Positions 3,241 to 17,868 of a DNA stretch of 64,000 nt are shown piece by piece (position 1 is the first letter of the stretch; each line of letters starts with the position of its first letter). The position numbers were made by a program, and so were the translations under genes. The stretch covers positions 133,453-197,452 of the forward strand of contig JAFVTS010000008.1 in the NCBI GenBank assembly GCA_017503105.1, given 5' to 3'. A model generated the notes under the pieces. That model saw nothing but the letters and a program-made list of their open reading frames with translations. It was not told the origin of the DNA and searched no databases. The stretch comes from Clostridia bacterium. GTDB taxonomy: Bacteria > Bacillota > Clostridia > Oscillospirales > CAG-272.

Positions 3241-3801
3241 ATGAACATTCAAGATTTTGATATATTTAAAAAAATCCCGAGCTTAAAAACCGAGCGACTG
3301 ATATTGAGAAAAATAGAAAAAAGCGATTTAGACGATATTTTTGAATACTCCTCTGATCCCGAAATTTCAAAATATCTCCTCTGGTCAAAGCACGAAAACA
3401 AAAGAGTGACGAAGAGATACCTCTCGGACGTTTTGAAAAAATATAAAAACGGGCAATTTTACGATTGGGCAATCGAGCTTGACGGTAAAATGATAGGTAT
3501 ATGCGGCTTTTCCCGTATCGACGTTTTAAACGACAGCGCGGAAGCGGGCTATATCGTAGCGCGTCCGTATCAGGGCAGAGGCATCGCCTCGGAAGCCCTT
3601 AAGGCGGTTTTGGAATTCGGATTCAACGTCCTTCAGCTGAGCGTGATAAAGTGCATCTCTTTTGAAGAGAACGCCGCGAGCAGAGCGGTGATGAAAAAAT
3701 GCGGAATGAAGGAAGAGGGCGTAATAAAAAATTACACGTTTCAAAAAGAAACGGTAAGAAACGCCGTTATAGCCTCTATAACAAAAGAAGAAATGCCGTA
3801 A
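3241..3801 (+). CDS. GNAT family N-acetyltransferase (RimJ/RimL-like)
   Basis: 186 aa. The core YQGRGIASEALKAVLEFGF is the acetyl-CoA binding Q/RxxGxG/A motif. Confidence 0.8.
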   Translation: MNIQDFDIFKKIPSLKTERLILRKIEKSDLDDIFEYSSDPEISKYLLWSKHENKRVTKRYLSDVLKKYKNGQFYDWAIELDGKMIGICGFSRIDVLNDSAEAGYIVARPYQGRGIASEALKAVLEFGFNVLQLSVIKCISFEENAASRAVMKKCGMKEEGVIKNYTFQKETVRNAVIASITKEEMP

Positions 3802-3888
3802 GTTTTTTAAAAGAGCTCATCAAAACGAGTCATATTGAAATCGTTTTTTTCATACCTATTAACAGAAAGTTTTTTCCGGAGGGGTAAA

Positions 3889-5079
3889 ATGAAAAAAACG
3901 ATTTCTTTATTTTTGGCAATGCTTTTCATCAGCATCGCCGCAGTACCGATTTATGCAGAAAACGCACAAAAAACAGAGGCAGAATATTGGGACGTATACG
4001 TTCCGAGCACCGACGCCGAGCTTGACCTCGGTGTAAAATCGGCGATTTTGGTAGAAGCGAAAACGGGTAAAGTTCTTTACGAGCACAACGCGCACGAGCC
4101 GCTCGCACCCGCATCAGTCACGAAAACGATGACCTTACTTTTAGTGGCGGAAGCCGTTGCGTCGGGACAAATATCACCGAGCGATGAGGTTATTATAAGC
4201 GAATACGCAGCTTCTATGGGCGGCAGCCAGGTCTTTTTAAAGGAAGGCGAGGCTATGAGCGTTGAGGAGCTGATAAAATGCACGGTGATAGCAAGCGCCA
4301 ACGACGCCGCCGTAGCTTTGGCTGAACATATTTCGGGGAACGAAAGATCCTTCGTTTCGGCAATGAACGAAAAGGCAAAAGCACTCGGTCTTAAGGGCTC
4401 CGTTTTTGAAAATACGACGGGCCTTGACGACGACGTCACGGAGCATACTATGTGCGCGTCCGATATTGCGACAATATCGAGAGAGCTCTTAAAGCACGGG
4501 ATAATAACGAAATATTCGTCCGTTTGGCAGGATTCCATACGAAACGGAGAATTCACCCTTACCAACACGAACCGCCTCGTAAGATATTACGAGGGCTGTA
4601 CGGGTCTGAAAACGGGTTCGACGGATAAGGCGGGATTCTGCGTCAGCGCGAGCGCAAAGAAGGGAAACACCGAGCTTATCGCCGTAATTATGGGTGCCGA
4701 GACGGGAAGTGCGAGAAACGAAGCCGCAAGAGGTCTTTTGGATTTCGGATTCTCAAATTACGCTTTATATAAATGCGCTCCGCACGACGCAGGACTGATA
4801 AAAACGATGGGTGCTAAGGTAAAAGACGCTCCGATAACGGCGCCCGATACGTTCTTCGCGGTAGTCAACAAGGCGGATCTGAACAAAGTTAGCGTATCGT
4901 ACGAATTGCCCGACAAAATTTGCGCACCTCTTTCCTCGGGCACTTGCGTCGGAAGAGTTATATACAAGGTCGGCGATAAGATAATAGGAAGCTCAGCCGT
5001 AATTTTAAAAGAAGATATTGAAAAAATAAGCTTCATCAACGTATTTTTCAACACGCTTTTGTCTTCGTTTACCGAGTAA
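3889..5079 (+). CDS. D-alanyl-D-alanine carboxypeptidase (PBP5/DacB/DacF class)
   Basis: ORF 3835..5079. ATG at 3889 follows a GGAGGGG RBS and gives the signal peptide MKKTISLFLAMLFISIAAVPIYA. SVTK (SxxK), SAN (SxN) and KTGST (KTG) motifs are present. Confidence 0.88.
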   Translation: MKKTISLFLAMLFISIAAVPIYAENAQKTEAEYWDVYVPSTDAELDLGVKSAILVEAKTGKVLYEHNAHEPLAPASVTKTMTLLLVAEAVASGQISPSDEVIISEYAASMGGSQVFLKEGEAMSVEELIKCTVIASANDAAVALAEHISGNERSFVSAMNEKAKALGLKGSVFENTTGLDDDVTEHTMCASDIATISRELLKHGIITKYSSVWQDSIRNGEFTLTNTNRLVRYYEGCTGLKTGSTDKAGFCVSASAKKGNTELIAVIMGAETGSARNEAARGLLDFGFSNYALYKCAPHDAGLIKTMGAKVKDAPITAPDTFFAVVNKADLNKVSVSYELPDKICAPLSSGTCVGRVIYKVGDKIIGSSAVILKEDIEKISFINVFFNTLLSSFTE

Positions 5080-9907: not shown

Positions 9908-10681
9908 ATGCGAAAAGAAAGTTTAAATTTTAAAGATTCTACCATTTTTGAAGGTATGACGTCTATCCGCGCCATTCTTAAAGCACGCGATGAAGGAATA
10001 AACGACCGCTCCATCGAAAAAATACTTTTCGACAAATCAAATTTGAAAAAAATTGCAAAAGACGTCGGATATTTAAGAGCAGTTTCGTCAAAATTCGGTT
10101 TTGAGCTCGTTGAGTCTAACGCCCAAGAAATCGAAGAAATCGCCATCGGAAACACGCACGGAGGCTTGATAGCCATAGCAAAAGAAAGGACAATTCACGC
10201 ACTCTGCCGAGAAATAATACGTGAAAATGAATTTTACGTTATGATACAAGGTATCGAGGACCCCTATAACTTCGGTTACGCACTGCGCTCACTCTACGCC
10301 TGCGGCGTTAGCGGTGTCATTTTACCCGAAAGAAATTGGATGAGTGCTGCAGGTGTTGTCGCAAGAAGCTCCGCGGGTGCCTCCGAATCCCTGCCGATGT
10401 TCACCGCAGAGCCCTCCGACGCTATCGACGCATTCAAAAGCGTCGGCTACACGGTCGTGTGCGCCGATCTTGACACCGACGAGGTGCTTGGAGAATGCGA
10501 GTTGAAATATCCTTTATTTCTTATCGTCGGCGGTGAGCGCCGCGGAATATCAAAGGACGTTCTTCTGAAAGCCGATAAAAAAGTCAAGATAGAATACGCA
10601 AGGGAATTTCGCGCTTCCCTTTCCGCCGCCTCGGCAACCACGATGTTCGCCTACGAAATAATGCGGCAAAATAAAAACTGA
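9908..10681 (+). CDS. TrmH/SpoU-family RNA 2'-O-methyltransferase (RlmB-like)
   Basis: 257 aa. DPYNFGYALRS, LFLIVGGERRGISKDVL and SLSAASATTMFAYE match the three SpoU methylase motifs. Confidence 0.85.
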   Translation: MRKESLNFKDSTIFEGMTSIRAILKARDEGINDRSIEKILFDKSNLKKIAKDVGYLRAVSSKFGFELVESNAQEIEEIAIGNTHGGLIAIAKERTIHALCREIIRENEFYVMIQGIEDPYNFGYALRSLYACGVSGVILPERNWMSAAGVVARSSAGASESLPMFTAEPSDAIDAFKSVGYTVVCADLDTDEVLGECELKYPLFLIVGGERRGISKDVLLKADKKVKIEYAREFRASLSAASATTMFAYEIMRQNKN

Positions 10682-10766
10682 TCGTTTTTTCCACTTCTTT
10701 ATCAAGAAACAAAAAGCGCCGTAAGGAGTACCTTCCATAAAGCAGGTTTTACCTTCCGAGAAAATC

Positions 10767-10802
10767 AAAAGGAGTACGAGCAATTTCGTTCGTACTCCTT
10801 TT
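10767..10802 (+). terminator. Rho-independent terminator of the TrmH-family gene
   Basis: AAAA-GGAGTACGA (10771-10779), 10-nt loop, TCGTACTCC (10790-10798), TTTT. Confidence 0.7.
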
Positions 10803-10810
10803 CACGCGCC

Positions 10811-10839
10811 TTGCCCTGCAAGGTATAGTGTGTTATACT
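10811..10839 (+). promoter_or_regulatory. Sigma-A-like promoter (extended -10) facing the repeat element
   Basis: TTGCCC (10811-10816), 17 nt ending in TGt, TATACT (10834-10839). No CDS follows on the plus strand. Confidence 0.45.
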
Positions 10840-10861
10840 TTGTATTTCGGGTGGTAAAAGA

Positions 10862-11027
10862 GGTGAAGTTTTTGCTATCGCAAAAGTGAAGTTGCTTTGC
10901 AGTGAAGTTTGGACTTGTATCCAAGTGAAGTTAAGTTTACCCACTTTGCCGAAGGCAAAACTTCACTATCCGCAGGATAACTTCACTTACGCAGTAAACT
11001 TCACTTGCCCCTTTGGCAAACTTAGTT
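10862..11027. repeat. Array of eight 9-mers: 4 direct (A/G)GTGAAGTT followed by 3 AACTTCACT plus one degenerate AACTTAGTT, each spacer a mini-palindrome
   Basis: Direct copies at 10862, 10885, 10901 and 10924. Inverted copies at 10959, 10979, 10997 and 11019 (degenerate). Spacers: TTTGC-TATC-GCAAA, GC-TTT-GC, TGGA-CTTGTA-TCCA, TTTGCC-GAA-GGCAAA, ATCC-GCA-GGAT, TAC-GCA-GTA, TTGCC-CCTTT-GGCAA. Confidence 0.92.
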
Positions 11028-11055
11028 GGGGCACCTGCTTTATCGCAGGTGCCCC
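11028..11055. terminator. Strong GC hairpin closing the repeat element, just past the stop of the Cys-rich gene
   Basis: GGGGCACCTGC (11028-11038), loop TTTATC, GCAGGTGCCCC (11045-11055). There is no adjacent U-tract on the minus strand. On plus, T6 starts 10 nt later. Confidence 0.5.
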
Positions 11056-11083
11056 AAGACGGCGCTTTTTTGCTTTTAAAAAA

Positions 11084-11938
11084 TTATTTACCGTTTCCGC
11101 AGCCGCAGCCGCCACCGCCGCCGTTACCCGTAGGCAGCTCTCCGAGAGGTGTTGTGGTTCCTCTGAACTGAGAGGTCGGGAACGCCATAGTTCTGAACAT
11201 AGCACAGGGATTTTCATTGCTTTGCGCGGGAGGACACTCCTTGTCGGGAACGCTGTAGTCGGTAGCCTGAATGAGAAGCTGAGTGGGACGCTCCACTCTT
11301 ATTACCGAGAAGATTCCAAGCGAAACATAGAGATTATGACCCGTATCCGCGGTGTTGAACGTGCCGTTGAAGTAGTTGCTTACGACATCGGGGATCTCGG
11401 AGCAGCAATCACAGCAGGGTGTGCAAGGACACGAGCAATCAACAACCTTAGAGCCGAGTATAATGGGCTCAACGGTTTCCACGATAGCAATGGGATCGTT
11501 GGTCTTCATATTGTCGGTATTGCCTATTGAACAGTAGTTGTTCTCGGGGTCCGACGAGAAGGAGATCGCCCTGCCCTCGCCGCCGTAAAGAACAACTTCC
11601 TTTTGAAGAACTACAAGACCGTTAAAGCATTTGCTCTTTCCGATACCGACGCAGCCCTCAAATCCTACCTCTATATAATATCTGACCGTGATGCGGTAGA
11701 ATCCGCAATTGAACGGAACCTCTTCCACTCCGACAAACGCCCAGAGCGTTTTCGCGTATTTAGTTCTGATATTCGTGCCGCTTGCGAGCATTTGTTCGCC
11801 GTCCTCGCAAAGATACACCCTGACGTCCTCAAAGCAATCTCTGTCCTTGCAGCAATCAAGAACGACGTTGGTATCTATGCAAACGGTGCCGCGCCCGTCA
11901 CAGCGTGACGTAAACTGTGTATTTCTGTTTTCTTGCAT
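11084..11938 (-). CDS. Cysteine-rich protein of unknown function (possible spore coat/exosporium protein)
   Basis: ORF 11084..11959. The ATG at 11938 follows AAAAAGGAGAAAAATA. 284 aa with about 20 Cys, including DCCKDRDC and CSCPCTPCCDCC clusters and a C-terminal GNGGGGGCGCGNGK tail. I recognise no known domain. Confidence 0.75.
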   Translation of the reverse strand: MQENRNTQFTSRCDGRGTVCIDTNVVLDCCKDRDCFEDVRVYLCEDGEQMLASGTNIRTKYAKTLWAFVGVEEVPFNCGFYRITVRYYIEVGFEGCVGIGKSKCFNGLVVLQKEVVLYGGEGRAISFSSDPENNYCSIGNTDNMKTNDPIAIVETVEPIILGSKVVDCSCPCTPCCDCCSEIPDVVSNYFNGTFNTADTGHNLYVSLGIFSVIRVERPTQLLIQATDYSVPDKECPPAQSNENPCAMFRTMAFPTSQFRGTTTPLGELPTGNGGGGGCGCGNGK

Positions 11939-11997
11939 TATTTTTCTCCTTTTTAGCATATACGGCTAAAGACGCTTATCACGTTGCGTCTCGTTAT

Positions 11998-17777: not shown

Positions 17778-17868
17778 TGGCGGAGAGAAAGGGATTCGAA
17801 CCCTTGATACCGGTTAGGGTATACACGATTTCCAGTCGTGCGCCTTAGACCAACTCGGCCATCTCTCC
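17778..17868 (-). tRNA. tRNA-Ser (anticodon GGA), CCA encoded
   Basis: Minus strand GGAGAGATGGCCGAGTTGGTCTAAGGCGCACGACTGGAAATCGTGTATACCCTAACCGGTATCAAGGGTTCGAATCCCTTTCTCTCCGCCA. It has a 7-bp acceptor, anticodon stem CACGA/TCGTG with loop CTGGAAA, a long variable arm, and T arm AAGGG-TTCGAAT-CCCTT. Confidence 0.95.

Follow-up and report, generated by a model that had tools for sequence, protein, structure and literature searches.

A repeat array between two convergent Clostridia genes assigned to Gut-1, a motif larger than catalogued and dispersed between genes

The array and its family

An array of short complementary repeats lies between two convergent genes in the window, by which we mean the whole 64,000-nucleotide (nt) stretch of Clostridia bacterium contig JAFVTS010000008.1 analysed here. 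Judged from its sequence, the array is one copy of the Gut-1 RNA family, and the safest statement on the family itself is that Gut-1 is larger than catalogued and behaves as a dispersed intergenic repeat. A permissive Rfam scan placed Gut-1 (RF01706) on the minus strand at 10955-11028, with 43.3 bits (E 3.7e-7) and over positions 1-77 of the 77 of the model; the Rfam gathering score for this family is 50 bits. Six related copies pass that score with 50.6-57.3 bits (L080, L071, L093, two copies in L040, and L092, L-numbers denoting the relative loci or contigs compared), and L092 shares 86% identity with the window across 302 nt. In all copies the Gut-1 matches fall on the strand equivalent to the minus strand of the window, in the same register. 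Because six homologous copies, including the 86%-identical one, exceed the cutoff, we assign the window element to Gut-1 as a member that is sub-threshold by score. The original prediction, made from the window sequence, could match the array to no RNA family, a claim that fails since the motif was already known. Other Rfam families gave only weak matches at chance level (BjrC68 on the GC-rich hairpin beside the array, called P0 below, M23 and others), and at the gathering threshold the scan of the whole window returned tRNA only.

On the plus strand, reading of the sequence and a repeat search found GGTGAAGTT at 10862 and AGTGAAGTT at 10885, 10901 and 10924, then the exact complement AACTTCACT at 10959, 10979 and 10997 and a degenerate AACTTAGTT at 11019, with a small palindrome in each spacer between the 9-mers. 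Exact GTGAAGTT or AACTTCAC occurs seven times in the 64-kb window with both strands counted, each time inside 10863-11004, against 1.83 expected; none of 100 shuffles reached seven, and the 8-mer GTGAAGTT is not enriched in the window outside the array. Both strands fold far more stably than shuffled sequences (z -6.2 and -6.8). The array sits between the 3' ends of a SpoU-type methylase gene (9908-10681, plus strand) and a Cys-rich open reading frame (ORF) of 291 amino acids (aa) (11084-11959, minus strand). The ladder of 9-mers and its palindromic spacers thus exist as first described, and so, as sequence, do the flanking hairpins, a T6 run at 11066-11071 and a promoter-like TTGCCC-17-TGnTATACT site on the plus strand (10811-10839; score 9/12 with an extended TG). 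The original prediction was also right to place the array between convergent 3' ends and to treat it as the operator of neither gene, and we regard it as a real conserved structured element. The ORFs predicted across it had been called artefacts, and nothing that we found supports them.

Weinberg et al. 2010 (PMC2864571) list Gut-1 among their confident non-coding RNAs, report it from human-gut metagenomes only and add no more on it. Our literature search found nothing on Gut-1 beyond that paper; a search with the 8-mers returned primers and siRNAs (small interfering RNAs) only. Three features of the published motif (RF01706, PMC2864571) recur here: three or four short covarying hairpins with a conserved GUGAA-type 7-8-mer between them, a start made of a degenerate linker and a UUGCCC...GGGCAA hairpin, and restriction to uncultured gut bacteria. 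In our relatives the hairpins covary around a GUGAA-type linker, GUGAAGUU, that is invariant, and the copies with two arms come nearly all from metagenome-assembled genomes (MAGs) of gut bacteria. The Gut-1 consensus differs in having three hairpins with GUGAAAU linkers, while the window linker is GUGAAGUU, which occurs 0 times in the 2010 alignment with flanks and is therefore a variant new relative to the seed. The Rfam model covers only the 5' half of the element, from AACUAAGUU to the third linker, and a complete copy is about twice as long as the model. The published description does not include P0, the long-range helix P1, or the complementary 3' arm with the two-arm architecture that it gives (all described below); nor does it include the GUGAAGUU variant, multi-copy dispersal, the spread through MAGs of gut Clostridia, or gain and loss, seen as a presence/absence polymorphism.

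The 2010 alignment with flanks itself contains 33 AUUUCAC and 52 AUAUCAC beside 54 GUGAAAU and 21 GUGAUAU, and copies of GUGAUAU are followed there by copies of AUAUCAC. These linker counts indicate that the two arms co-vary between lineages and that a complementary 3' arm is general in classical Gut-1. Classical Gut-1 also occurs in tandem arrays with a 240-nt period: of BAAZ01000130.1 and BABA01009772.1, one carries four copies and the other two.

Two arms, covarying hairpins and strand

A pattern scan with one genome per species recovered at least 120 loci; the family counts given from here on come from the matches listed. The sources are mostly MAGs of Oscillospiraceae, Acutalibacteraceae, Christensenellaceae, Ca. 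Scatosoma and unclassified Clostridia, from human and animal guts. Conservation outside this strain, one of the points on which the original prediction hung, takes the form of a two-arm architecture in at least 61 gut Clostridia loci; 43 complete copies were parsed and 31 of these aligned. The typical order is P0, AACUAAGUU, hp0 (UUGCCC...GGGCAA), three (A)GUGAAGUU linkers with hp1-hp3, a centre of AGUG-GGGCAAACUU, and four AACUUCAC(U) linkers with hp4-hp6. Read on the minus strand, the window copy and the sequences that accompany it are made up as follows.

11028 to 11055, minus strand: P0, a GC-rich clamp hairpin of 11-13 bp that abuts the 5' end of the element (a hairpin with 13-bp arms was found at 11026-11057)
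11019 to 11027, minus strand: X0, AACUAAGUU, a degenerate linker copy, where the Gut-1 model begins
11005 to 11019, minus strand: hp0, a UUGCC...GGCAA hairpin, the 5' half of which may instead pair with the centre as P1
10959 to 11005, minus strand: 5' arm, three GUGAAGUU(A) linkers with hairpins hp1 (10988-10996) and hp2 (10968-10978) between them
10955 to 11028, minus strand: extent of the Rfam Gut-1 (RF01706) covariance-model match
10946 to 10958, minus strand: hp3, UUGCC UUC GGCAA
10933 to 10945, minus strand: centre, AGUG and GGGUAAACUU, the 3' strand of P1, with its partner AAGUUUGCC at the 5' end
10862 to 10932, minus strand: 3' arm, four AACUUCAC(U/C) linkers with hp4 (10910-10923), hp5 (10894-10900) and hp6 (10871-10884) between them
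10809 to 10839, minus strand: two extra small hairpins, CCTTGC/GCAAGG and GTATA/TATAC, kept in the closest copies; the same bases form the promoter-like site of the plus strand
10767 to 10802, both strands: bidirectional intrinsic terminator hairpin with 13-bp arms, an A-tract and a T-tract, in the block common to L092, L041, L078 and L052
10731 to 10750, minus strand: degenerate second copy of P0, ACCUGCUUUAUGG on that strand, at the far end of the conserved block; present in the window, L052, L092 and L078
10690 to 11093, 404 nt: intergenic segment without counterpart in the congener L239, which has an unrelated 171 nt

The hairpins covary and the linkers do not. Seven freely covarying hairpins are separated by an invariant 8-9-mer, the first linkers, GUGAAGUU, being the complement of the last four, AACUUCAC. 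In the 5' arm, hp1-hp3 are 95-97% paired, with changes on both sides in up to 21 of the 31 sequences: hp1 and hp2 are 97% paired and altered on both sides in 19-21 of the 31, and hp3 is 95% paired, each of its 5 pairs being changed on both sides in some sequence. In the 3' arm, the two outer stem pairs are Watson-Crick in 94% and 93% of cases, against 45% with shuffled partners. P0 is a family-wide feature: 38 of 42 copies have a strong hairpin of 9-19 bp with its end 0-4 nt ahead of AACTAAGTT. It is conserved together with the surrounding block in L092, L041 and L078. On the same strand, its loop (11039-11044 in the window) is GATAAA in the window and in L092 but TTTATC in L078, with the stem kept, which looks like a flip within the palindrome.

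The linkers are invariant within and between copies and exist as lineage variants (GTGAAGTT, GTGAAAT and GTGATAT) between which both arms switch together. Such invariance of sequence calls for a shared partner in trans, be it a protein, other copies or a mobilisation machinery. Pairing of the two linker blocks with one another is predicted throughout: all 31 minimum-free-energy folds contain at least two linker-linker helices, with a mean gain of 20.5 kcal/mol, and RNAalifold also selects the rod. The long-range helix P1 joins the 5' AAGUUUGCCC to GGGCAAACUU of the centre; it is mostly invariant, and its pairs (5-15/95-105) show 8 G.U cells, 3 compensatory ones and about 10 broken ones. Some sub-types, in L008, L084 and L161, share the two linker blocks, but their centre is another, longer one of 60-75 nt that contains extra hairpins, and they do not begin with AACUAAGUU.

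If the element is transcribed, it is probably read on the minus strand, an orientation favoured by the asymmetry of wobble pairs, the gene context and the strand of the Rfam matches. We counted 23 G.U pairs on the minus strand and 8 on the plus strand (p ~0.01, with cells that are not phylogenetically independent). Where the flanking genes stand in tandem, the element points the same way as they do by 10 to 3, and the median distance between the AACUAAGUU end and the end of a gene on the minus-equivalent strand is 47 nt. In L036, L076, L094 and L109 the upstream ORF reads across P0 and stops at the UAA in AACUAAGUU (distance -6), so that in these four loci the element supplies the stop codon. 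Three of these four ORFs appear to encode RumA/TrmA-type methyltransferases (three neighbour matches, with the C-termini in L076 and L036 read by eye). Beyond the far end on the minus-equivalent strand, about half of the copies have a canonical T-tract terminator, or else a ribosome-binding site and a gene come next. The observations that bear on a putative expression as a non-coding RNA are the wobble asymmetry (23:8) and the gene context.

The original prediction framed the array as a possible gene of the opposite strand. A trans-acting small RNA (sRNA) gene of this kind would use the promoter at 10811-10839 to make an RNA of about 225 nt ending at P0, a small hairpin and T6 (11047-11071). 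Its promoter-like site scores 9/12 with the extended TG, its -35, -10 and spacing are kept in L092 and L041, and the upstream terminator at 10767-10802 would insulate such a gene; but across 40 copies we found no promoter enrichment upstream of the array on either strand, the family scoring exactly as the controls do (7.26 vs 7.26), and in many copies a terminator lies right against the first GTGAAGTT, so that a promoter would not fit in between. Of the 5 closest copies, 2 have lost the critical last T of the -10 hexamer (TATACC in L078, TATACA in L052), whereas the same bases still form the two small hairpins, with G.U pairs on the minus strand. A terminator-like hairpin and T-run do follow P0 in the window, L092 and L078, yet on the plus strand P0 is not followed by a T-tract in the majority of copies, wobble pairing points to the minus strand by 23:8, and the Rfam model lies on the minus-equivalent strand in every copy. 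A free-standing sRNA gene would have a conserved promoter of its own and an intrinsic terminator; across the family we found no such pair, the candidate promoter occurring in the subfamily of the window only. We therefore consider the plus-strand gene improbable.

Dispersal, gain and loss

The element is dispersed in unrelated contexts, mostly at gene 3' ends, with several diverged copies per genome. It lies between convergent genes in 15 cases, tandem genes in 13 and divergent genes in 4, and about 12 of 75 loci have a second copy within 8 kb, a rough estimate of copy number. Copies in one genome either differ strongly in stem sequence, as L041 and L099 do, or share one half with shuffled modules, as the two copies (a and b) of L040 do; all copies of a genome carry the same linker. 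Neither Pfam nor all-against-all clustering of 1009 ORFs revealed a recurrent neighbour family within 2.5 kb of at least 61 copies.

Comparison with congeners exposes a presence/absence polymorphism at the site in the window. The congeners L239-L242 have the same gene order and lack the element, their intergenic regions of 171, 76, 79 and 51 nt holding one ordinary terminator. L239 is collinear with the window at 85-93% DNA identity, the exception being 10690-11093 (404 nt), in place of which L239 has an unrelated 171 nt. Among the matches listed, the copies closest to the window block, those in L092, L041, L078 and L052, have different adjoining genes and share with the window everything from P0 to beyond the terminator at 10767-10802, including the second P0 at 10731-10750. 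Absence from collinear congeners, together with the presence of the block next to other genes elsewhere, indicates that the element was acquired here or repeatedly lost elsewhere. No target-site duplication is visible in the comparison of filled and empty sites; the whole filled and empty intergenic regions cannot be aligned, and so none could be found there.

The dispersed-repeat alternative raised in the original prediction, a REP- or MITE-like palindrome (repetitive extragenic palindrome; miniature inverted-repeat transposable element), is among those that fit best in its dispersed-repeat part. A MITE we reject: no target duplication is seen, the stems diverge strongly within a genome, and the only end-repeat is the degenerate second P0. 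We also reject insertion between the stem and T-tract of a host terminator, as the far end has no consistent T-tract and P0 is unlike the terminator of the empty site in L239. An association with phages was discarded as well, the two-arm element occurring in one viral contig among 118 pattern matches; the L161 contig, classed as viral, carries two copies. Nor did a conserved partner gene emerge among the neighbours over the distance given above; a PF05635 four-helix-bundle gene comes after the array in just five loci, which are related.

That gene encodes 117-121 aa and begins about 20 nt past the array, on the strand opposite to the forward strand of the window, in L040 (521-3274) and also in L036, L076, L086 and L109. 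The L040 product matches PF05635 (23S rRNA intervening-sequence, four-helix-bundle) with E 6e-25. In L040 and L036 the PF05635-type gene is followed by one with a helix-turn-helix (HTH) and a T5orf172 domain, and in L040 this pair is flanked by two copies of the element, with an RNA methyltransferase gene upstream.

Candidate roles and neighbouring features

We tentatively favour, at a probability of roughly 0.45, a structured 3'-tail element that caps or insulates transcript ends in the manner of REP sequences and bacterial interspersed mosaic elements (BIMEs) or of BOX elements, with the linkers zipped into a rod. In the window, the element would ride on a minus-strand transcript as the 3' tail of the Cys-rich gene, which was one of the alternatives listed in the original prediction and is among those that fit best. 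The complementary linkers would zip the two arms into a rod of 8-9-bp helices worth some 20 kcal/mol, with the hairpins projecting at the junctions. Such a stable 3' structure may then cap and insulate transcription units that converge or stand in tandem, protecting their ends from exonucleases or reinforcing termination, and the family would spread to further intergenic sites.

The likeness to known repeats is partial. Like REP/BIME sequences, the element consists of arrays of small palindromes that lie in intergenic regions by gene 3' ends, above all where genes converge, and that vary in unit number; on a rough estimate it has several copies per genome. The REP/BIME sequences of enterobacteria are transcribed as mRNA tails able to stabilise the upstream mRNA. 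In REP, however, the palindrome is conserved and the linkers vary, whereas here the linkers are invariant and the stems vary, and REP has no counterpart to the two complementary linker blocks. We found no gene like those of REP-associated tyrosine transposases (RAYT) within 2.5 kb of at least 61 loci. A REP/BIME family has such a gene in its genome, copies in the hundreds, and a conserved palindromic unit whose 5' tetranucleotide is conserved. BOX elements of Streptococcus pneumoniae are likewise modular, dispersed and intergenic, vary in the number of internal modules and carry no transposase themselves, and a stable RNA fold is predicted for them too. Their modules, by contrast, are about 45-60 nt long and conserved in sequence, they belong to another phylogenetic group, and they do not alternate a short invariant linker with covarying hairpins.

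Several observations weigh against the 3'-tail reading. The window copy itself falls under the Gut-1 gathering score (43.3 vs 50). The alignment holds no compensatory support for linker-linker pairing, the linkers being nearly invariant; the variant linkers of L084 are unmatched in nested order, and single-sided linker changes are disruptive as often as they are wobble. P1, which has some wobble and compensatory support, is topologically incompatible with a nested rod unless pseudoknotted. The nested rod of identical helices proposed in the original prediction hence stands as a thermodynamic prediction, and as one that lacks compensatory support in the alignment and competes with a partly supported P1. 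The loops are mirror-symmetric between the arms, GNA- or GNRA-like on the AACTTCAC-bearing strand of each, for which a single-strand RNA model gives no explanation. As for transcription, a good sigma-A-like promoter faces the array on the plus strand in the subfamily of the window and is kept in L092 and L041, the energy of the whole element does not discriminate between strands (-62.2 vs -61.7 kcal/mol), and termination at P0, if efficient, would let little transcription into the element; we infer the transcript, its strand and its ends alike. Because the support for P1, the mirror symmetry of the loops and the invariance of the linkers fit the 3'-tail reading poorly, three rival explanations stay alive: the plus-strand gene discussed above and the two that follow.

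The first of these places the function in the DNA and makes any RNA incidental. The array would be a set of 8-9-bp protein sites in two inverted blocks, or would form hairpins in single-stranded DNA (ssDNA) for an HUH-type or REP-associated transposase. Linkers that are invariant yet lineage-specific, with both arms changing together, are what a protein co-evolving with its site predicts, but the centre-to-centre spacing of the sites varies between 16 and 26 bp, which is awkward for an array bound as double-stranded DNA. The transposase version would also account for the spread. A DNA-level role sits well with the presence/absence polymorphism, with many copies lying directly behind a terminator and with the modules shuffled between the two L040 copies; yet no transposase, recombinase or other recurrent gene was found near the loci over the distance given above, and terminal duplications are not visible. 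The mirror-symmetric loops are often C-GNA-G on the AACTTCAC-bearing strand of each arm, a class of loop that is unusually stable in DNA. On the other side, the stems of L041 and L099 differ strongly but stay paired, suggesting long-term structural selection at each site, and a strand-asymmetric wobble needs a single-stranded form. Overall, we regard a DNA-level element as unlikely.

The second is a multivalent RNA scaffold or sponge, in which P1 would close the 5' domain and display GUGAAGUU single-stranded, to bind a protein or, in trans, the AACUUCAC of other copies. We hold it to be quite unlikely. P1 has G.U and compensatory support, the linkers are conserved as sequence rather than as pairs, each genome has one linker, as a common trans partner would enforce, and tandem copies with a 240-nt period occur in the 2010 data; set against these points, folding predictions zip an RNA with both arms in cis, there is no known candidate for the binding protein, and the 8-mer is not enriched elsewhere in the window. 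The sponge RNAs CsrB and RsmZ also repeat a short motif in a hairpin-rich RNA, but their GGA motifs lie mostly in loops, they have no complementary block, and their binding protein is known.

A more speculative view, to which we give little credence, makes the linkers shared 'sticky' sites. Transcripts could pair through GUGAAGUU and AACUUCAC into multivalent assemblies, P1 holding the 5' linkers open, or the linker-hairpin units could be the recognition modules of an undescribed ssDNA mobilisation system. Were this true, Gut-1 would be no ordinary small RNA but an element of a new kind, and the mobilisation version would explain the gain and loss between congeners.

Three further candidates were rejected. 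The array is not a CRISPR (clustered regularly interspaced short palindromic repeats) locus: its repeats are 8-9 nt long and stand in two opposed blocks, its spacers are palindromic and 7-18 nt long, and no cas gene is among the neighbours, whereas CRISPR arrays have direct repeats of 23-47 nt in one orientation, unique non-palindromic spacers and usually cas genes. A Rex/CRP operator, which has two inverted half-sites at a fixed short spacing, does not fit either, and neither does parS, a contiguous 16-bp palindrome. The GTGAA/TTCAC cores are present and, as the original prediction had remarked, resemble Rex/CRP half-sites at the wrong spacing; they are arranged in direct-repeat blocks at 16-23 bp, and these blocks face away from the parS arrangement. 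Finally, the 8-mer resembles GUGAAGUC of 16S rRNA helix 44; we rejected this target since the linker varies from one Gut-1 lineage to another and the rRNA is constant.

Since 2010 the Rfam entry for Gut-1 has consisted of a single descriptive sentence, with no function assigned. What is catalogued is only the 5' half; the complete element is larger and two-armed, its linkers form a self-complementary code, and it is widespread in major uncultured gut Clostridia lineages, with several diverged copies per genome and gain or loss between congeners. The orphan motif thereby acquires testable hypotheses (a 3'-end cap, a DNA-level or mobile element, a multivalent RNA) and coordinates for the mapping of metatranscriptomes. 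For annotation, ORFs called over such arrays are artefacts, and the element can give upstream genes their stop codons.

Some features around the array were also recorded. The Cys-rich ORF (11084-11959, minus strand) has the C-terminus GGGGGCGCGNGK and no Pfam domain; about 1000 homologues were found (E <= 1e-10), the few named ones being from Clostridia. It is convergent with the SpoU methylase gene, with SpoIIID beyond, in the window and in four related contigs. Within the conserved block, AAGGAGTAC at 10718-10726 repeats part of the 5' arm (AAAAGGAGTACGA) of the terminator stem at 10767-10802 and could accordingly compete for the 3' arm, as an alternative pairing or a remnant; the stretch is kept in L052, L092 and L078. 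The sole Rfam match above its gathering score in the window is a tRNA gene at 17781-17868 on the minus strand. In L118, a 6S RNA gene (RF00013, 58 bits) at 3880-4071 lies about 60 nt from an element copy at 3653-3818.

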